Positions 11,182 through 50,251 of a stretch of DNA of 64,000 bases are shown piece after piece. The notes beneath the pieces are model-generated. The model worked only from the letters and a program-made list of their open reading frames with translations. It made no database searches and was not told the origin of the DNA. Position 1 is the first letter of the stretch; every line of letters starts with the position of its first letter. Source of the stretch: a virus. A program made the translations under genes and the position numbers. Location: positions 7,606-71,605 of the IMG/VR virus record IMGVR_UViG_3300027667_000003. One strand, 5' to 3'.

Positions 11182-12114
11182 ATGAGCCGAAGCACCATAA
11201 GCACCTTTCAGTTATTTGAGAAGTTTCCAGACGAAGAATCGGCTCGAATCTATCTTGAAAAGAGACTTTGGAAAGACGGTGCTCGTTGCCCGAAGTGCAA
11301 AGGAACCGAGTATGTCAGAGGGCGGAAAGGAAAACACGGCGTGTATTTTTGCAACAAGTGCCGATTGGACTTCACGGTGAGAACAGGAACTATATTCGGG
11401 CGGTCGCATGTACCACTACACAAGTGGCTCTACGCGATGTACCTGCTTGTGACGGCACGAAAGGGCATCTCGTCTCTTCAGTTGGGCAAAGAGATAGGAA
11501 TCACTCAGAAATCGGCGTGGTTTGTTTTGCAGCGGCTTCGTGAAGCGTGTGGGGCGCAAGTCGTGATGCTCAAGGGGATCATTGAAGCCGATGAAACGTA
11601 TTTCACAGGCAAGGAAAGCAGTCGCCACATGTGGGAGCGGTTGCATGAGCCACGGGAGCGAGCGGACAAGGCTCTTGTGATGGGAATGCGGCAACGTGGC
11701 GGCGATACGATTGCGAAAGTAATTCGCAGTACGGGCGGTCGGGAACTTCGCGCAGCCATTCAAAATAACGTGGCACAAGGTTCTCGCGTAATGACAGATG
11801 CTTTTGCGGGATACACATCGCTCGGTAAAGATGGATTCAAACACGAAATGGTGAACCACACTAAGGATGAATATGTTCGCGGAGACGTTCACACGAACAG
11901 TATTGAATCCGTCTGGGCTGTGATGAAACGCGGGATGCATGGCGTCTATCACCACGCCAGCAAGAAGCATCTCGGACGATATGTTGATGAGTTTACGTTT
12001 CGTTTGAACGCAGGGAAGGTACAGCGTCACACGTTTGACCGACTGGATAGTTTCATTGACGCAGTTGCGGGAAAGAGAATCACCTACAAAACTCTTACAA
12101 AGGAGACCGTATAA
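11182..12114 (+). CDS. IS1595-family DDE transposase with Zn ribbon
   Basis: CPKC...CNKC, FTVRTGTIF, IEADETYF, MTDAFAGY, TNSIESVWAVMKR, HLGRYVDEFTFR. Confidence 0.95.
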   Translation: MSRSTISTFQLFEKFPDEESARIYLEKRLWKDGARCPKCKGTEYVRGRKGKHGVYFCNKCRLDFTVRTGTIFGRSHVPLHKWLYAMYLLVTARKGISSLQLGKEIGITQKSAWFVLQRLREACGAQVVMLKGIIEADETYFTGKESSRHMWERLHEPRERADKALVMGMRQRGGDTIAKVIRSTGGRELRAAIQNNVAQGSRVMTDAFAGYTSLGKDGFKHEMVNHTKDEYVRGDVHTNSIESVWAVMKRGMHGVYHHASKKHLGRYVDEFTFRLNAGKVQRHTFDRLDSFIDAVAGKRITYKTLTKETV

Positions 12115-21357: not shown

Positions 21358-21432
21358 TGTGGGGTGGCTCAATGGTACAGCAGACGCCTGTTACGCGTCC
21401 AATTGCTGGTTCGAATCCAGCCCCCACAGCCA
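21358..21432 (+). tRNA. tRNA-Asn (GTT) with encoded CCA
   Basis: Acceptor TGTGGGG/CCCCACA, G73, anticodon stem GACGC/GCGTC with loop CTGTTAC, T arm GCTGG-TTCGAAT-CCAGC; one C:C mismatch in the D stem. Confidence 0.92.
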
Positions 21433-42981: not shown

Positions 42982-43211
42982 ACTTCCCTAATATAAAAGT
43001 TACTCCACCCCCGACCCGAGAATATCCGGATTACGAAGTCAAAGGGCGAGGCGAAGAACGATTGACGGTGGGGAAATTAAAATATATTGTCGGCAATAAC
43101 GGCCATATATCCGGTTATTTTTTCATATCAGAAGGTTATCAGCCTATTTCAGAAGGCACCTTCCTTCAGATTTATCAACAATTGTACGATCTCAACAGAA
43201 GGATATCCTAA
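42978..43211 (+). CDS. hypothetical protein
   Basis: AGGAGG RBS before ATG 42978. Confidence 0.6.
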   Translation: MNFPNIKVTPPPTREYPDYEVKGRGEERLTVGKLKYIVGNNGHISGYFFISEGYQPISEGTFLQIYQQLYDLNRRIS

Positions 43212-43969
43212 TGCGAACCACACTCTCACAAAACACTCAACAAGGTCGCCGGCCGTATCAGGAAGATAGGCTTGTTTATAAGATCTCCGAAGACGGTGTA
43301 TTGGCGGCGATCTTTGACGGACACGGAGGAGACTACACATCCAACTTTTGCGCAGAGATGTTATTCGCGGCCTTCGATACTGTGGGAGCAGATGCTGAAT
43401 TACCCACTGTCATTGATAAGATGCGTCGTCTATTCGGCATTCTGAATTTCGCAACTGAACATATGGAAGAGGGAACAACCGCTTCGATCGTCTACATTAC
43501 ACCTCAACTGGATAAGGCCGTGGTGGGTATATTAGGCGACAGTCCGGTGATCATCAAAAACAAGGGGGCCGAATACTGGCATGCGCCCGAGCACAACGTG
43601 CGATCCAATCCCAATGAAGTTAAGAGAATCACTAAAGTGGGCGGATATGTACACGGAGGTTATGCTTTCTCCGGAAGAGGTAGTTTGGACGCCGGAGGAC
43701 TTCAATTAACCCGAACCTTGGGTGACAAAGCATTTTCCGACATCTTGTCTCGTGATCCGGAAATCTTTGAACACGAATTAGGAGTAGGAAGTTTCGTGAT
43801 GGTGGGAAGCGACGGTCTTTTTGATCCCTCGCATCAATCATCTAGTCCGGCCCGCGAAATTGTTGAGTTGGTGGAACGAGGGCGGGAAGCCGGCGATTTG
43901 GTGAAGCATGCGATTGATAAACCAACCCATGATAACGCATCGGCTATCTTAGTGAGGATACTCGCGTGA
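43211..43969 (+). CDS. PP2C/PPM-family Ser/Thr protein phosphatase
   Basis: RPYQEDR, IFDGHGG, LGDS, TRTLGD, GSDGLFD, HDNAS. Confidence 0.92.
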   Translation: MRTTLSQNTQQGRRPYQEDRLVYKISEDGVLAAIFDGHGGDYTSNFCAEMLFAAFDTVGADAELPTVIDKMRRLFGILNFATEHMEEGTTASIVYITPQLDKAVVGILGDSPVIIKNKGAEYWHAPEHNVRSNPNEVKRITKVGGYVHGGYAFSGRGSLDAGGLQLTRTLGDKAFSDILSRDPEIFEHELGVGSFVMVGSDGLFDPSHQSSSPAREIVELVERGREAGDLVKHAIDKPTHDNASAILVRILA

Positions 43970-44730
43970 GCGATGTGCAAATATTCGAAGAGTTCGGCTT
44001 TCCTTGGCCCAATAACTTAATCATGTCCTATGTGGGTGGATCCACTGCGCATGGGGCTAAGCTCGTCGAAAAGGCCGACACCGATTATTACGGAGTCTTC
44101 ATCGAGCCCGCTTATAAAATACTGGGCATCGACGCCTTTGAGCATTTCGTGCATACGACGGGTACGGGACATAACACCGTTCATGATGTAGATATCTGTC
44201 TTTATAGTCTGCGCAAGTGGGCCGGGCTAGCCGCTAAAGGCAACCCCTCATCCCTCCACTTTCTATTTGCTCCTCGATCCTTTACACATCCTCTTTGGGA
44301 CTACATTCAATACCACCGAGATAGTTTTTTGTCCAGAAATCACATTCGTCCTTTCATGGGATTTGCCGACGATCAAATGAAACGACTGTTCGGAGAGAAG
44401 GGTCAAAAGAATTGCAATCGAGCCCAGGACGAATTGGAATTCGGCTACGACACGAAGTATGCCATGCATGTCATCCGCCTCTACAGCGAAGCTAAAGAAT
44501 TGATGGAGACTGGAATTATCACACTGCCCCGCCCGGACAAAGATTTACTCATTGACATTCGAAGGGGTAAGTACAAGCTCTTTGAAATTAGGGAAATGGG
44601 CACACAGTTGGAAAGAGAAGCCATGCAGGCCGCGGATAAGTCACCCTTACCACCCGCAATCAACAGAGAGAAAGTTTCTAAAATGGTGGCCGAGGTATAC
44701 CAAGCGTTCTGGGGAGGATACGATCTATGA
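43966..44730 (+). CDS. RlaP-like Pol-beta superfamily nucleotidyltransferase
   Basis: GGSTAHG...ADTDYYGVF, LAAKGNP, GYDTKYAMHVIRL, LIDIRRG. Confidence 0.85.
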   Translation: MSDVQIFEEFGFPWPNNLIMSYVGGSTAHGAKLVEKADTDYYGVFIEPAYKILGIDAFEHFVHTTGTGHNTVHDVDICLYSLRKWAGLAAKGNPSSLHFLFAPRSFTHPLWDYIQYHRDSFLSRNHIRPFMGFADDQMKRLFGEKGQKNCNRAQDELEFGYDTKYAMHVIRLYSEAKELMETGIITLPRPDKDLLIDIRRGKYKLFEIREMGTQLEREAMQAADKSPLPPAINREKVSKMVAEVYQAFWGGYDL

Positions 44731-45050
44731 AATGGAAAACTAGTGATACAACACCGCCAAAATTAGGCGACACTTATCGAAGGGATATCTTCTCTCTCCT
44801 ACCCCGCGATTGTTCTGACGGCTACACGCGCTGGCTAGAGCGCGTGACTATAGCCATGAAATTTGTCGAACAAGAAATCTCAGATGGCGAACTTATGGGT
44901 ATACCCACGACTCACACCATTCAATGTTATGTGGAAATTTCGGCTCACCCCTTAGCCGGCTCTCTCGATCATACGATAGAACTCGCACGAAAGAGATCCC
45001 GAGAGAGATTTGAAAAATTACAAGCGGAACGAGAGCGTATCAAGCCATGA
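44727..45050 (+). CDS. hypothetical protein
   Basis: ATGA overlaps. Confidence 0.6.
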   Translation: MKWKTSDTTPPKLGDTYRRDIFSLLPRDCSDGYTRWLERVTIAMKFVEQEISDGELMGIPTTHTIQCYVEISAHPLAGSLDHTIELARKRSRERFEKLQAERERIKP

Positions 45051-45310
45051 GCGATCCCATTCAAGACCGCATGCTTTGGGAATTTGATTGTGCAAAGTGG
45101 AGGGGGAAAGTGCTGAACGGGCCGGACGCTCATTATTGTTTCGATTGGGACGAGCTACCTGTAGATGCGACGACACCCGAATATGATTGTTGCACTTGTT
45201 TTCCCCATACTTTGAAAGGCCGAATCATCAATCGATTGTACATGATAGTTTTTAATTTCAAGGCTCATCGAGTACAAAAAGCAGCTGAGAGAGGAAAAGG
45301 TACCTTCTAA
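45047..45310 (+). CDS. hypothetical protein
   Basis: Overlapping gene string; Cys-rich. Confidence 0.6.
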   Translation: MSDPIQDRMLWEFDCAKWRGKVLNGPDAHYCFDWDELPVDATTPEYDCCTCFPHTLKGRIINRLYMIVFNFKAHRVQKAAERGKGTF

Positions 45311-45573
45311 TGAAAATCGTCTACAAGGATTTTGATGTAGATGCGCATCGAGAGAAGAGTATGGGCGGAGATACATTACTCTACTACTCGATCTTTAGAA
45401 AATCAGACGGTTACGAAGTCACTTCGGGCTTCAGTTACGGGACAGATAAGATTGTGGACTTTGTGGGCTATCTCAAGGATTGGGTGGACGATTTTATTGC
45501 AGATCCCCAGGCCTGGATGACCGACGAACGTATAACAATTGAAACTGAAGAGGAGGAAATACGTGAACTCTAA
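45310..45573 (+). CDS. hypothetical acidic protein
   Basis: TAATG overlap. Confidence 0.6.
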   Translation: MKIVYKDFDVDAHREKSMGGDTLLYYSIFRKSDGYEVTSGFSYGTDKIVDFVGYLKDWVDDFIADPQAWMTDERITIETEEEEIREL

Positions 45574-46315
45574 AGATTCACTGGGTGACAGGATGAAAAG
45601 TCAGTATGAAGATCGTTATCGTATTATGCTTCCTCGACGGACATATACAATAATTAGATTAGACGGCAAAAACTTTCATACCTTCACTCGCAATGCTGTA
45701 CGACCCTTCGACTTTGAATTTACAAAAGCCATGGACCGAACAGCCGAATATTTGGCTTCTGAGGCTCAGGGCTGTCAATTCGTCTACACCCAATCCGATG
45801 AGATCTCACTTTTGTTAACAGATTTTGAAACACCTCAAACAGCCGCTTGGTTTGACGGCAATCTTCAAAAAATAGTATCCGTAATTGCCGGCCTGTCGTC
45901 TGCAAAATTCGGGGAGATAGCGCGAAAATTTAGTTGGTTTCCAGATAGCGCTCCGTCTTTTGACGCCCGTGCCTTCATTATTCCTGATCCCGTAGAAGTA
46001 GAAAACTATTTTATTTGGCGACAAAAGGACGCTTCTCGAAATAGCATCAATCAAGTAGCGCAGCATTTCTTTCCTCATTCCGAATTACAGAACAAAAACA
46101 TTTCCAAAGTTCAAGAAATGCTTATACTTAAAAAAGGCTACAATTGGGATACGGATACACCCACAGGCCTTAGGAACGGAAGAGCAATCACATACTGGGG
46201 CCGATTAGGGGAATCTTGCCGTTGGCACGCCGATCCGGAAACACCCGAGTTCACCAAGAATCGAAGTTATCTTATATCTAAAATCCCCATACAGTGGGGT
46301 GGAGATCCTTTATGA
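45563..46315 (+). CDS. thg1: tRNA(His) guanylyltransferase / 3'-5' RNA polymerase (Thg1-like)
   Basis: GDRMK.YE, IRLDGKNFHTFT, YTQSDEISLL, FDGNLQK, FDAR, WRQKDASRNS; GAGGAGG RBS before GTG 45563. Confidence 0.93.
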   Translation: MNSKDSLGDRMKSQYEDRYRIMLPRRTYTIIRLDGKNFHTFTRNAVRPFDFEFTKAMDRTAEYLASEAQGCQFVYTQSDEISLLLTDFETPQTAAWFDGNLQKIVSVIAGLSSAKFGEIARKFSWFPDSAPSFDARAFIIPDPVEVENYFIWRQKDASRNSINQVAQHFFPHSELQNKNISKVQEMLILKKGYNWDTDTPTGLRNGRAITYWGRLGESCRWHADPETPEFTKNRSYLISKIPIQWGGDPL

Positions 46316-46530
46316 CAATAGATGAAATCAAGAAGTCGCAGGCTGACGTACGAGAAACATATCTCAGTCAAAACAATGTGGGACAGGAAGCTCGCGCTTC
46401 TTGCATCATAGCCGAGGCCGTTTACGAAGTGGCTTTGCAACTCGCTCTATTTAGAAAGAAGCAGAGACACAACAACGGCCTAAGTGATAACGCTAATGAA
46501 TTCATTGACAGTATACTTGGTGATGATTAG
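46312..46530 (+). CDS. hypothetical protein
   Basis: ATGA overlap with thg1. Confidence 0.6.
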   Translation: MTIDEIKKSQADVRETYLSQNNVGQEARASCIIAEAVYEVALQLALFRKKQRHNNGLSDNANEFIDSILGDD

Positions 46531-46742
46531 TGGATAACACACTCTCACTTACATCCGAGGCCTACGAAGAATTGAAAGCCAAGATTATAGCCGTAGGTTA
46601 TGGAAATTCTAGAATCAAGATGGAAGGCGACCGGGAATACCTGGACCTGGACAGCATAGGTTTAATACGCGGAGACGATAAAGATCTGAAATGTTATCTC
46701 GTGTATAAGGGCGGGATCGTGAAAACCGGGAGAACAGACTAA
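46530..46742 (+). CDS. hypothetical protein
   Basis: TAGTG and TAATG overlaps. Confidence 0.6.
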   Translation: MDNTLSLTSEAYEELKAKIIAVGYGNSRIKMEGDREYLDLDSIGLIRGDDKDLKCYLVYKGGIVKTGRTD

Positions 46743-46930
46743 TGGGTAAATGTGAAATTTGCCATACGGAAGAACAGGCAGAATTAACAACCTGCACTTA
46801 CTGCGGTCTAGAATTGTGCTATGACTGTTGCAACGATCACGAACCGGATTGCGACGATAGAGACGATAGAGACGATAGAGACGATAGAGACGATAGAGAC
46901 GATAGAGACGATAGGGACTCAGATGACTAA
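46742..46930 (+). CDS. small Cys-rich protein with a (Asp-Asp-Arg)7 tail
   Basis: CEIC, CTYC, CYDCC.H then DDR repeats. Confidence 0.7.
   Translation: MGKCEICHTEEQAELTTCTYCGLELCYDCCNDHEPDCDDRDDRDDRDDRDDRDDRDDRDSDD
46853..46915 (+). repeat. 9-bp tandem repeat GACGATAGA x7 (last unit GACGATAGG)
   Basis: Counted directly; in frame within the 46742 ORF. Confidence 0.95.
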
Positions 46931-47168
46931 AATAAGCGGACCGACCTGGATAACTTATTTCATTATGCAAAATATAACTAACAAGGATCGCCGGCTTGCC
47001 CACCCCACTTCTACCGATGAACGGCCTCCTTCCCGTAAATTCCGAGATCTCGAAGAAAGAATGCGATTGAAAAAGCTTCTGGCCCATGTGGAAAACCGAA
47101 TATCATTAGCTGAGTTCTCTAATACAACGACGGATAAAATAATACTTCGAAGGATTTTTGGTGAATAG
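46923..47168 (+). CDS. hypothetical protein
   Basis: ORF fills the gap between neighbours; start uncertain. Confidence 0.5.
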   Translation: MTKISGPTWITYFIMQNITNKDRRLAHPTSTDERPPSRKFRDLEERMRLKKLLAHVENRISLAEFSNTTTDKIILRRIFGE

Positions 47169-47544
47169 CGCCCGCAACCGCAGACCCGCAATTAGAGAAC
47201 GCGCCCGTTATGCTCGTATCCGCCGACTGAGCTTGGAACTTGAAAAGAATGGAATGCCCGAACCCAAGATCAAAAAGACTGGGCCGGCCACAATTGAAGG
47301 TCGTGTCTATCTCAACTATGACGATACTGAGGAGCGACATGTTTATACCAGTCTGTGGATTGAACTGCCTCTAAGCAATCTTACAGAAACGGTTCAGTCC
47401 ATGTACAAGAATGGATTCTGGGCTCCCCGGCCGCACAAGAATGAATTGATCTTTATACCACCCTACAAGATTTCTCAGATTGTTTTATCAACCGATATTC
47501 GAACGACAGAATTAGTTAATCCCGATTATTCAGTAGGAGGATAG
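47158..47544 (+). CDS. hypothetical protein
   Basis: 128-aa ORF in the gene string. Confidence 0.6.
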   Translation: MVNSARNRRPAIRERARYARIRRLSLELEKNGMPEPKIKKTGPATIEGRVYLNYDDTEERHVYTSLWIELPLSNLTETVQSMYKNGFWAPRPHKNELIFIPPYKISQIVLSTDIRTTELVNPDYSVGG

Positions 47545-47757
47545 ATGACAGATTGTGAAATTCGATATGGAATGCTTATAGCTCTTCGAACAAATAACAT
47601 TGAAGAAGCCCGGCGCTTACAAGGGTTGAGACACGACTTAATTGAAAATGAGGCTTTAGAACAACACAAACTCATTGAGTCTTCTTTCGAAAGATTATGG
47701 GAAGAAAAATCTAATACTTGGCTACCTCCATACCATAGTCCGAAGGCGGTCGAATGA
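47545..47757 (+). CDS. hypothetical protein
   Basis: AGGAGG RBS. Confidence 0.6.
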   Translation: MTDCEIRYGMLIALRTNNIEEARRLQGLRHDLIENEALEQHKLIESSFERLWEEKSNTWLPPYHSPKAVE

Positions 47758-48119
47758 GCTACATGCAATTTCAACAGAGATGCGAAGACTGTAAAAAGGA
47801 ATGGAACGCGGCTTTCGGAATTGTGGGCACAACCATTCTTGCTTCACCACCTGTTAAGTGTCCTCACTGTAAATCCGAAAAAATCTCTCGAATAGCCGAA
47901 GGTTGGAAAATTACTAAAGAAAATGAAAAAGAATTTGCAATCCGATTAGCAAACAAGATACTCGACCGTCCAAGCGGTGATCCCGATGATGATCTAGCCA
48001 CTCTGTCACGACAGTTTTTACGAGCACTTGAACTACGCACACCCAAATGCCCTAAATGTGGTAGCAAAAAATTACGCTGCGAAAACGGCTGTACCTGGGA
48101 GATTGAAAATGTTTCATAG
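47754..48119 (+). CDS. multi Zn-ribbon protein
   Basis: CEDC, CPHC, CPKC, CENGC. Confidence 0.7.
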   Translation: MSYMQFQQRCEDCKKEWNAAFGIVGTTILASPPVKCPHCKSEKISRIAEGWKITKENEKEFAIRLANKILDRPSGDPDDDLATLSRQFLRALELRTPKCPKCGSKKLRCENGCTWEIENVS

Positions 48120-48234
48120 TCGATGCCGCGGTCATCTGACTTGGAAAGAAGAACTTGGATGTGTAGTTGCCGCTCTCATGTTAACCGGAATCATTGTGGC
48201 TACGGCACATTGGCTAGCATACTTGGGATATTAA
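48109..48234 (+). CDS. small membrane peptide
   Basis: GGAG RBS; hydrophobic CVVAALMLTGIIVATAHWLAYLGY. Confidence 0.5.
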   Translation: MFHSRCRGHLTWKEELGCVVAALMLTGIIVATAHWLAYLGY

Positions 48235-48237
48235 GTA

Positions 48238-48267
48238 TTGACAAACGATCGGAATTAATGGTATGTT
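48238..48267 (+). promoter_or_regulatory. sigma70-like promoter directly ahead of tRNA-His
   Basis: TTGACA(48238-43), 18 nt, extended -10 TG-G-TATGTT(48262-67). Confidence 0.65.
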
Positions 48268-48273
48268 GATTCC

Positions 48274-48348
48274 GTGGCGGTGGCTCAACGGCTAGAGCAC
48301 GCGACTGTGGCTCGCGGTATGTGGGTTCGATTCCCACCCGTCACCCCA
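48274..48348 (+). tRNA. tRNA-His (GTG), C73, encoded CCA, C (not G) at position -1
   Basis: Acceptor GTGGCGG/CCGTCAC, D stem GCTC/GAGC, anticodon stem CGCGA/TCGCG with loop CTGTGGC, T arm GTGGG-TTCGATT-CCCAC; upstream bases are TTCC. Confidence 0.95.
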
Positions 48349-48362
48349 ACAAAGGAGATATC

Positions 48363-49269
48363 ATGAAAATTAAATACAAAGACTTTCGATTATCAACCGG
48401 CAGCCTCTCCCTCGTGGAACAATGTAACGAGATAATCGAAGACTACACCAGCCAGGGATTCATGCTGACTTTGCGGCAACTTTACTACCAACTGGTTTCC
48501 CGAGATATAATTCCCAACACCGAACGATCTTATAAACGTGTAGGCTCAATTATCAATGACGCTCGATTAGCCGGCCTCATAGATTGGAACGCCATAGAAG
48601 ACCGCACTCGTAATGTCCGTAGTCTTTCTCACTGGGATAGTCCGGCCGATATTGTGGAAACTGTCGCAAAGCAATTTCGAGTAGATATGTGGGTTGGTCA
48701 GACATACCGGCCTGAAGTTTGGATAGAAAAAGACGCTCTCGTGGGCGTAATTGAAGGCATCTGTCACCAATACGATGTGCCCTATTTCTCGTGCCGAGGA
48801 TACACATCCCAATCAGAAATGTGGGGCGCAAGTCAACGTATGATCGAACACGCCGAAGGGGGGGCAGGTTCCCTATATCCTGCATTTCGGGGATCACGAT
48901 CCCTCGGGTAAAGATATGTCTCGCGATATTACCGATCGATTGAATATGTTTATGGGCGACGGTGGACTGGAATTCAAACGAATGGCCCTCAACATGGATC
49001 AGATTAAGAAATATAATCCGCCACCCAATCCTGCAAAATTAACCGACGCTCGTTGTGCGGGATACATCCGAGAATTCGGAGACAGTTCTTGGGAATTAGA
49101 CGCTCTCGAACCTCGTGTAATTTCAAATTTAATTTCTAATGCTTTAGACAATTTAATTGATCAAGAAGTTTGGGATGAGCGAGCAGACGAGATTAAGAAG
49201 GGCCGGAAGACTCTTCAAACCATATCCGACAATTACGTTAAGGTAGAGAAGTTTTTAGCCAAAAAATAG
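48363..49269 (+). pseudogene. Topoisomerase VI subunit A-like (winged helix + Toprim) gene split by a +1 frameshift in a G7 run
   Basis: LTLRQLYYQLV and EVWIEKDAL in the first frame; the Toprim motif ILHFGDHDPSGKDM is in the +1 frame right after GGGGGGG at 48858-48864. Confidence 0.75.
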
Positions 49270-49301
49270 TGCTTGACATCCTTTCGAAATCATGAGACTA
49301 T
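49264..49301 (+). promoter_or_regulatory. phage promoter motif AAATAGTGCTTGACA upstream of the integrase
   Basis: Exact copy of 14388-14402; -10 element poorly defined; GGAGG RBS follows. Confidence 0.5.
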
Positions 49302-49318
49302 TGATTTCGGAGGTCATA

Positions 49319-50251
49319 ATGGAAATGGACGTAGCAACACAAGCCGACATCTATCTCATGAGTCTTCAGACTCGCAAGCGTGGCACCGCGAAGGCATCCA
49401 CATTGGCGGCTTATCAATCCTATCTGAAAAATTGGATCGTGCCCAACATCGGCAATCTGGATTTAGGTGAGGTCAAGAATGGCACCCTCAAAAAGCTCGT
49501 GACAACCATGGCCGACGCCGGCCTCAGCCCGGCAACGATCGCTGGGGTGACAAATTGTGTCAAGGGTATAATCAATTCGGCCGTAAGTGAAGAAGGGGAT
49601 TACCTTTATCCCGTCAAATGGAACCACGAATTCATCGATTCGCCGCCAGTTAACGCCCGCGATCAAGAGAGTCCCATGATTGGGCCTTTAGAGGTCCGTA
49701 CAGCCATTTTGGCGGTTTCGGGCCAGTACCGCCCACTTCTGGCTCTGCTGGCCGGGACTGGCTGCCGTATTAGCGAGGCTCTAGCAATAAAGAAAGGGCC
49801 TTGCCCCGATTCTTCCTATTGGGATCCCGCTCGGGCCATTGTGTCCATTAGCACACAGATTTACCGCGGCCAAGAACAGTCGCCCAAGACGGCCGCGGGT
49901 TTTCGCGAGATTGATCTGGCACCCTCTCTAAACGATTTTCTTACCTGCAACTTTAACCTTAAACCTGCAAGTGAACTTCTCTTCTGCGACGAAAACAAGG
50001 AACCCCTCACGCTATCCGCGGTGTACCGCGCAACCGCATCGGCCAATATTCCGGGCTTCCATTCCTTCCGTCGGTTCCGCACCACGCATCTGCGCTCCAT
50101 GCGCGTGCCTGAAGACATCATCCAATTTTGGATCGGCCACTCGGGGAAGAGCATCACCGATCGTTATAGCAAAATGGCTCAAAATATCGAGGAACGAAAA
50201 AAGTATGCAGTCGAAGCGGGGTTGGGTTTCGAGCTACCGGAGGCACAATGA
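49319..50251 (+). CDS. int: tyrosine recombinase / integrase
   Basis: GCRISEAL (R), FHSFRR (HxxR), IGH, DRY (catalytic Tyr); N-terminal SAM-like region. Confidence 0.88.
   Translation: MEMDVATQADIYLMSLQTRKRGTAKASTLAAYQSYLKNWIVPNIGNLDLGEVKNGTLKKLVTTMADAGLSPATIAGVTNCVKGIINSAVSEEGDYLYPVKWNHEFIDSPPVNARDQESPMIGPLEVRTAILAVSGQYRPLLALLAGTGCRISEALAIKKGPCPDSSYWDPARAIVSISTQIYRGQEQSPKTAAGFREIDLAPSLNDFLTCNFNLKPASELLFCDENKEPLTLSAVYRATASANIPGFHSFRRFRTTHLRSMRVPEDIIQFWIGHSGKSITDRYSKMAQNIEERKKYAVEAGLGFELPEAQ

Follow-up and report, generated by a model that had tools for sequence, protein, structure and literature searches.

Thg1-like proteins and the tRNA-His 5' terminus

The G at position -1 of tRNA-His (G-1) is encoded in the gene in all bacteria except some alphaproteobacteria (PMC3061083, PMC3245924), and its pairing with C73 makes RNase P cut one base early (PMC3245924). 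Loss of G-1 leads to more than 100-fold poorer charging by the histidyl-tRNA synthetases (HisRS) of yeast and E. coli (PMC3064791). Two classes of bacterial tRNA-His are distinguished: the G-1-dependent class has G1:C72, C73, and an 8-nt D loop, while the alphaproteobacterial G-1-free class is marked by A73, G1:U72, and a D loop of 9 nt (PMC3064791). The locus described here comprises a phage tRNA-His(GUG) gene without an encoded G-1 and, about 2 kb upstream on the same strand, a gene for a Thg1-like protein (TLP), a templated 3'-5' nucleotidyltransferase. Both lie in a 64,000-nt stretch of DNA (the window) that covers bases 7606-71605 of a 110,892-bp IMG/VR virus record (IMGVR_UViG_3300027667_000003) from a soil metagenome. 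CheckV gives the completeness of this record as 100%.

The closest solved relative of the phage enzyme is BtTLP from Bacillus thuringiensis (PDB 4KGK/4KGM; PMC3701042, PMC3061083), which has the same metal carboxylates and nucleotide-site residues. BtTLP adds G-1 to C73 tRNA-His with a kcat/KM of 5500 M-1 s-1, equal to that of yeast Thg1 on its natural substrate, as measured with 5'-triphosphorylated transcripts (PMC3061083); such ppp-tRNA mimics the activated intermediate (PMC3245924). The enzyme is strictly templated and performs no worse in repairing tRNAs of other identities that are truncated at the 5' end (PMC3061083, PMC3701042). BtTLP differs from the phage enzyme in being cellular; its host encodes G-1, and no natural G-1-less substrate is known for it. 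Bacteria encode G-1 and apparently have no need of such an enzyme, and the in vivo role of bacterial TLPs is unsettled (PMC3245924, PMC3061083). That role has been a question since 2010, and the phage offers a natural test system consisting of one tRNA, one promoter, and one enzyme.

Archaeal-type Thg1/TLP systems likewise combine a C73 tRNA-His lacking an encoded G-1 with a templated 3'-5' enzyme (PMC3061083, PMC3245924). There, the enzyme is a housekeeping protein of the cell, whereas here a bacterial virus carries both parts, and the relatives surveyed do not share the pairing. Eukaryotic Thg1 (yeast and human; PDB 3OTB, 3WBZ) shares the fold family, the catalytic carboxylates, and G-1 addition after 5' processing, but it adds an untemplated G-1 opposite A73, reads the anticodon, and is a much weaker sequence match to the phage TLP (1.6e-14 to 7.9e-11, in the N-terminal half only). 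Phage genes of the same family (phrog_4717) are described for Bacillus phage Bc431v3 (gp143; PMC3601020) and in a jumbo-phage survey (PMC7824862), with 5'-end restoration as the proposed function, and a 'tRNA-His guanylyltransferase' of this type is annotated in 164 cultured-phage records. Phage Thg1 genes are annotated or discussed as repair enzymes (PMC3601020, PMC7824862, PMC2904730, PMC3245924); one survey reads both Thg1 and RlaP, a Pol-beta family predicted to restore lost nucleotides during RNA repair, in this way (PMC7824862). The literature found on phage Thg1 makes no link to a phage tRNA-His without G-1.

A tRNA-His without an encoded G-1

The tRNA-His(GUG) gene occupies 48274-48348 on the plus strand and is recognized by ARAGORN and by Rfam RF00005 (60.8 bits; model positions 1-71 aligned with 48274-48345), with a register check and direct reading of the sequence in agreement. 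Its acceptor stem (GUGGCGG/CCGUCAC) forms 7 of 7 pairs, one of them G.U, and opens with G1:C72. The molecule contains U8, a 4-bp D stem with an 8-nt D loop, a 5-bp anticodon stem with the loop CUGUGGC, a 4-nt variable loop, and a standard 5-bp T stem. C73 is base 48345 and is followed by an encoded CCA at 48346-48348. ARAGORN finds three tRNA genes in the whole record, for Asn(GUU), His(GUG), and Lys(UUU), and no HisRS gene of the phage's own was found there.

Position -1 of the tRNA-His on the plus strand is C48273, not G. Position -2 is also C, and the triplet 48271-48273 reads TCC. Re-registration anchored on the T loop returns the same register and the same C at -1, and none of the alternative registers checked yields a G-1:C73 pair. 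Contigs made by an independent assembler (Logan) from two soil-metagenome runs are identical to the record over 47900-48700, at a depth of about 14 and with no variant; the two runs gave identical contigs, probably from the source sample, which rules out an assembler slip but does not amount to an independent sample. The first-pass annotation had described a tRNA-His with C73, CCA, and C at -1, and this description is confirmed, including at the -1 base that might have proved to be G: the independent assembly of the same sample reads C.

Judged from its sequence, the phage tRNA-His is a member of the G-1-dependent bacterial class in all but the encoded G-1. It has the GUG anticodon, G1:C72, C73, and 8-nt D loop of the canonical bacterial form, with C48273 where a G opposite C73 would be encoded. 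The alphaproteobacterial G-1-free tRNA-His is likewise a bacterial-type gene without an encoded G-1 (PMC3064791). However, that class has a divergent HisRS, and its tRNA carries A73, G1:U72, and a 9-nt D loop with U20a, against C73, G1:C72, and an 8-nt D loop in the phage tRNA.

A sigma-70-type promoter lies at 48238-48267 on the plus strand and consists of TTGACA, an 18-nt spacer, and an extended -10 element (TGg-TATGTT); it scores 10/12 with the TG in a promoter scan. With its end 6 nt before position 1 of the tRNA, the -10 hexamer puts the canonical start at G48274, the first base of the tRNA and the sole purine in 48270-48275 (3-8 nt past the hexamer). Sites scoring at least 10/12 with the TG extension occur only five times on both strands of the whole 110.9-kb genome, and the probability that such a site ends 5-9 nt ahead of any given base is about 1e-4. 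TTGACA promoters with an extended -10 are reused elsewhere in the phage genome, and neither of the phage's other two tRNAs has such a promoter.

Promoter match and geometry fit a predicted start at tRNA position 1, if the host uses this promoter. Because the promoter places +1 on that base, the tRNA-His is probably made leaderless and with a 5'-triphosphate, which would make it a ready TLP substrate. Leaderless 5'-triphosphate tRNAs are known from Nanoarchaeum equitans, where transcription starts at the first mature nucleotide and there is no RNase P step (PMC10100707). The tRNA-His transcript of N. equitans starts at G-1, whereas the predicted phage start is G+1, so G-1 would be added afterwards. 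No terminator-like site occurs in 47700-48700; with no terminator between the upstream genes and the tRNA-His, read-through precursors are also possible.

The phage TLP and its operon

The TLP gene lies at 45563-46315 on the plus strand and ends 1,958 nt before the tRNA-His. Its product matches Pfam Thg1 (PF04446) at 2.3e-27 and 95.9 bits (cut-off 29.2) over profile positions 3-130 of 130, and PHROG phrog_4717 'tRNA-His guanylyltransferase' at 4e-78. It is the only Thg1-family gene in the 110,892-bp record (97.7 bits in the genome search). Among solved structures, BtTLP (4kgk) is the best match, with an E value of 8.8e-58 over residues 9-235 of 245, and eukaryotic Thg1 structures (Candida, human, and others) match at 1.6e-14 to 1.8e-7 in the N-terminal half only. 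By sequence comparison, the phage enzyme is thus a bacterial-type TLP and not a eukaryotic-type Thg1.

The RLDG and SDE motifs are present and align with the BtTLP metal ligands. The BtTLP carboxylates D30, D75, and E76 (human D29, D76, and E77) correspond to D24, D69, and E70 of the phage protein, numbered from ATG 45593, and R16, R28, D30, S74, D75, E76, K99, and R131 of BtTLP are all conserved in the alignment (residue roles from PMC3701042). Two positions differ from BtTLP, with Arg at K43 and Gln at M158. In BtTLP, K43 is used only for ATP-dependent activation of 5'-monophosphate ends, and its replacement by Arg in the phage is conservative. The first-pass annotation had placed an intact Thg1-family gene with catalytic motifs about 2 kb upstream on the same strand, which is borne out. 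Its label needs qualification: membership of the templated 3'-5' polymerase family and the intact motifs stand, and the name Thg1 in the eukaryotic sense gives way to bacterial-type TLP. The start it had used, GTG 45563, is probably correct and is the best available, with a Shine-Dalgarno sequence (GAGGAGG) at 45550-45556 and a 6-nt gap; ATG 45593 is the alternative.

The TLP gene is the last of six overlapping plus-strand genes (43211-46315; overlaps of 1-11 nt) that form one operon. The first encodes a PP2C-family phosphatase (43211-43969; PF00481, 1.5e-18) and overlaps by 4 nt with the second, which encodes an RlaP-family nucleotidyltransferase of the Pol-beta fold (43966-44730; PF10127, 3.4e-17; phrog_388, 1.1e-51). 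Three small open reading frames (ORFs) from the ORF list follow at 44727-45050, 45047-45310, and 45310-45573, with successive overlaps of 4, 4, and 1 nt, and the last overlaps the TLP start by 11 nt. None of the three matches a Pfam family, and 45310-45573 weakly matches phrog_20613, a PHROG with no assigned function.

TLPs and encoded G-1 across phages

The relation between TLPs and encoded G-1 was surveyed from both sides. The TLP-first survey covered 80 viral loci, with whole-record follow-up of the tRNA-rich ones, 80 metagenome loci, and 12 cultured phages. A tRNA-His covariance model failed to separate His from other tRNAs by score, and typing was done with ARAGORN on fetched stretches. 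The tRNA-first scan of viral contigs relied on a search pattern tied to the anticodon and the T loop that took no account of the 5' end, with structural filtering afterwards. No relative of the phage TLP above 57% identity was found in viral_contigs, genome_contigs, or metagenome_contigs.

TLP carriers with a C73-type tRNA-His encode G-1 in at least one gene in 16 cases (G001, G054, G057, G075, G076, G079, G084, G085, G068, G019, G035, L404, L416, Bacillus phage G, Vibrio phage D69, and G058, the last in one of two genes) and not at all in two. A C73 tRNA-His without encoded G-1 is found among them only in the window phage, in G044, and as the second gene of G058. Among the other phage TLP carriers examined, all but one of those with a C73-type tRNA-His encode G-1, and further carriers have a non-C73 tRNA(GUG) or no tRNA-His. 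In Pectobacterium phage CBB, the encoded G-1 faces A73. An odd tRNA(GUG) that combines C1:G72 with A73 and lacks G-1 occurs in Bacillus phage Bc431v3 and Rhodococcus phage Weasels2, and the Caulobacter TLP phages have non-C73 forms without encoded G-1, that of CcrBL9 having G1:U72 like the alphaproteobacterial class. At least 23 of the 164 TLP phage records infect alphaproteobacteria (Caulobacter, Brevundimonas, Sinorhizobium, Agrobacterium), several lineages of which, Caulobacter included, need no G-1 on tRNA-His (PMC3061083, PMC3064791). Aeromonas phage 2L372D and the complete record G065 gave no tRNA match, and Mycobacterium phage Kalah2 has tRNA-Gly only and no tRNA-His. No tRNA-His was among the best-scoring tRNA matches typed in Shewanella phage 1/4 (tRNA-Arg and tRNA-Gly) or in Sinorhizobium phage phiM12.

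The tRNA-first scan yielded 27 genes with G-1 and C73 and about 10 clean genes with C73 and another base at -1. A Thg1 search of 76 tRNA(GUG) records was positive for 2 of 32 with G-1/C73, 1 of about 10 with non-G/C73 (G044), and 1 of 29 others (G102). In Fisher's test, the ratio of G-1-less to G-1-encoding cases in the first 14 TLP cases (2/12) did not differ from an approximate background of 10/28 (p = 0.48). Four G-1-encoding TLP cases were found after this test, and the later additions all encode G-1. With 2 against 16 TLP carriers and this p value, the earlier expectation that G-1-less tRNA-His genes co-occur with thg1 across phages fails. The idea of a self-contained pair fares no better, given that TLP phages mostly encode G-1, that some G-1-less phages have no TLP, and that some TLP phages have no tRNA-His. 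The window phage holds both parts of a post-transcriptional G-1 pathway in one genome; across the genomes surveyed, G-1-less C73 tRNA-His and TLP do not go together.

About one quarter of the C73 tRNA-His genes in viral contigs lack an encoded G-1 (L207 of G046, L176 of G052, L112, L127, L123/L125/L138/L141, L185, L180, and L281). A search for a phage TLP was negative in most of these contigs, and two of them are complete genomes. This fraction is not predicted by the textbook rule, under which every bacterial-type tRNA-His encodes its G-1. The other G-1-less genes mostly stand in tight arrays, with 0-2 nt between them and the tRNA before, and the window tRNA-His differs from them in being free-standing with its own promoter.

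Three further features of phage tRNA(GUG) genes emerged from these scans. The triplet A-3 U-2 G-1 precedes 21 of the 27 G-1/C73 genes (L109-L217 and other viral loci), and likewise the genes of phage G, Vibrio phage D69, CBB, G084, G058, and G068; the window phage has TCC there. RNase P prefers a U just before its cut, which U at -2 would suit. A class with C1:G72, A73, and no G-1 recurs in L342 (Bc431v3), L134 (G102), L358 (Weasels2), L107, L114, L118, L133, L194, and L220 and departs from both the bacterial and the alphaproteobacterial tRNA-His design. In two phages with a TLP, the first acceptor pair is mismatched, U1.C72 with G73 in G002 (L086:1498-1574, minus strand) and U1.U72 with A73 in Caulobacter phage CcrPW (L352:1501-1575). 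These tRNAs could be editing substrates, because mitochondrial TLPs correct such mismatches by 5' editing.

The TLP neighbourhood is not conserved across the 80 viral and 80 metagenome loci, and RlaP alone recurs. RlaP (PF10127) scores above the cut-off in 13 of 53 TLP records and in none of 44 TLP-less records that bear a tRNA-His (p = 2e-4); restricting the comparison to records with a completeness of 90% or more gives 8 of 14 and 0 of 9 (p = 0.007). Both statistics ignore kinship, and the lineages are not independent. RlaP and TLP lie within about 1.5 kb of each other in the window phage, G004, G095, L396, and L401. The tracking of RlaP by phage TLPs supports a possible role for these enzymes as counter-measures to tRNA damage.

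Proposed role of the phage TLP

The explanation favoured here, at about even odds, is that the TLP repairs tRNA 5' ends in general and most likely provides this tRNA-His with its G-1 as well, and is not one half of a dedicated co-evolved pair. The comparative data speak against such a pair and for general 5'-end repair, with the tRNA-His as an opportunistic or secondarily dependent client. By analogy with BtTLP and MaTLP (PMC3061083), the phage enzyme would be strictly templated and would repair 5'-truncated tRNAs of any identity. Its general job would be to rebuild damaged or incomplete tRNA 5' ends in an RNA-end module with RlaP. The tRNA-His, transcribed from its own promoter at G+1, would carry a 5'-triphosphate and neither leader nor G-1. 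Using the triphosphate end directly, the TLP would let an incoming GTP pair with C73 and attach it as G-1, completing the 8-bp acceptor stem required by a canonical host HisRS. In read-through transcripts, C-1 is unable to pair with C73, and RNase P would therefore cut at +1; activation of the 5' end with ATP or GTP and extension by the TLP would follow.

BtTLP biochemistry, the tRNA anatomy, and the promoter geometry together make it moderately likely that the TLP adds G-1 to this tRNA-His whenever both are expressed. It is more doubtful that the phage has a complete RNase P-independent pathway, with a leaderless start at G+1, use of the triphosphate without ATP activation, and G-1 addition by the TLP. 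If true, this pathway would provide the first natural in vivo G-1-addition substrate for a bacterial-type TLP and a counter-example to the rule that bacterial-type tRNA-His gets its G-1 by transcription.

Several points count against the favoured explanation. The promoter has an imperfect -10 element (TATGTT) and an 18-nt spacer. The public runs that contain this DNA include no RNA run, and both the start and the added G-1 are predictions; the type of the host HisRS and host use of the promoter are assumed. Two complete phages without a TLP, G046 (41 kb) and G052 (201 kb), have clean G-1-less C73 tRNA-His genes with CCA, which may work some other way. The repair module is also incomplete by itself: neither RtcB nor a CCA-adding enzyme was found in the phage genome, its only RNA_ligase match is sub-threshold at 18 bits, and RlaP is not linked here to an RNA ligase such as RtcB, as it is in RlaP-type RNA-repair modules. 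Finally, the RlaP association could stem in part from the shared ancestry of large phages.

A dedicated pair, in which the TLP would mainly make the phage tRNA-His chargeable and thereby control or gate a private His-tRNA supply, for example under cleavage by defence nucleases, is unlikely. The tRNA-His and TLP do share one 3-kb stretch and one strand, a start at the gene's own promoter would exclude an encoded G-1, and the three phage tRNAs (Asn GUU, His GUG, and Lys UUU) belong to the sets hit by known anticodon nucleases. The excess of G-1-encoding TLP carriers and the shifting TLP neighbourhood both argue against co-evolution, and the operon partners of the TLP suggest general RNA-end chemistry. 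G044 repeats the combination of a TLP with a G-1-less C73 tRNA-His, but there the two are more than 10 kb apart and the -1 base is a 1-nt spacer in a tRNA array. Alternatively, the two features may be unrelated, the tRNA-His working (perhaps poorly) without G-1 or through a host activity and the TLP serving other, mostly host, tRNAs. The quarter of C73 genes that lack G-1 in the unbiased scan, mostly in arrays and on contigs without a TLP found, complete genomes included, is consistent with this possibility, as is the preference of TLPs for 5'-truncated tRNAs of any identity (PMC3061083, PMC3701042). However, BtTLP efficiently extends in vitro just such a triphosphorylated or monophosphorylated C73 tRNA-His without G-1. 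If the two are co-expressed, a lack of interaction would thus call for an explanation, and unrelated features are tentatively regarded as a less than likely account.

Two further accounts concern the tRNA-His alone. Phage attachment (attP) sites often overlap tRNA genes, and a tyrosine integrase gene identified by Pfam and PHROG searches lies about 1 kb downstream (49292-50251). The tRNA-His might then be mainly an attP element, with a 5' flank free of selection for tRNA function. This is very improbable: a search of 185,579 species-representative genomes (genome_contigs) gave no exact match to its 26-nt T-arm and acceptor 3' strand, the tRNA is complete at 60.8 bits with a strong promoter of its own, and the integrase comes with a separate promoter, one of the phage's own type. 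An error in sequencing or assembly that hides a true G at -1 is hardly credible. Only the rarity of the arrangement speaks for it, whereas the independent assembly of the reads is identical and without variant, and C at -2 departs from the A-3 U-2 G-1 of most G-1-encoding phage genes.

Neighbouring features

Two adjacent plus-strand ORFs at 48363-48911 and 48916-49269 match phrog_6247 (6e-66 and 8e-39). The pair starts 14 nt past the CCA of the tRNA, with an AAGGAG site in front, and is probably transcribed together with the tRNA-His. In this phage and in every one of the 35 viral loci found (L293-L327), this 'DNA topoisomerase' homologue consists of two adjacent ORFs, and the persistence of the split across loci points to a conserved two-gene layout and not to a frameshift error. 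Of the 35 loci, only L324 has a tRNA-His within 10 kb, and phrog_6247 was for this reason rejected as a lineage marker. A tRNA-His directly upstream of a phrog_6247 gene was otherwise seen only in G045.

The promoter motif that is the phage's own (AAATAGTGCTTGACA, then TGA-GACTAT) recurs inside the start of the listed integrase ORF (window 49262-49325). The ATG near 49319, rather than 49292, is probably where the integrase begins.

All three phage tRNAs end with an encoded CCA (window 21358-21432 and 48274-48348; genome 101548-101621, minus strand). A Shine-Dalgarno site and an ATG follow each of them at 14-15 nt, as if each tRNA also served, by processing, to form an mRNA 5' end.

An IS1595 transposase gene at window 11182-12114 has a 79% identical copy in the related phage contig L370 (JGI Ga0669126_0000278; 104,470 bp). 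The L370 copy sits at the same site, directly after the DNA polymerase A gene (polA), with other passenger genes, one of them an N6/N4 methyltransferase. The two phages seem to have in common either the IS1595 insertion itself or a hotspot for it.

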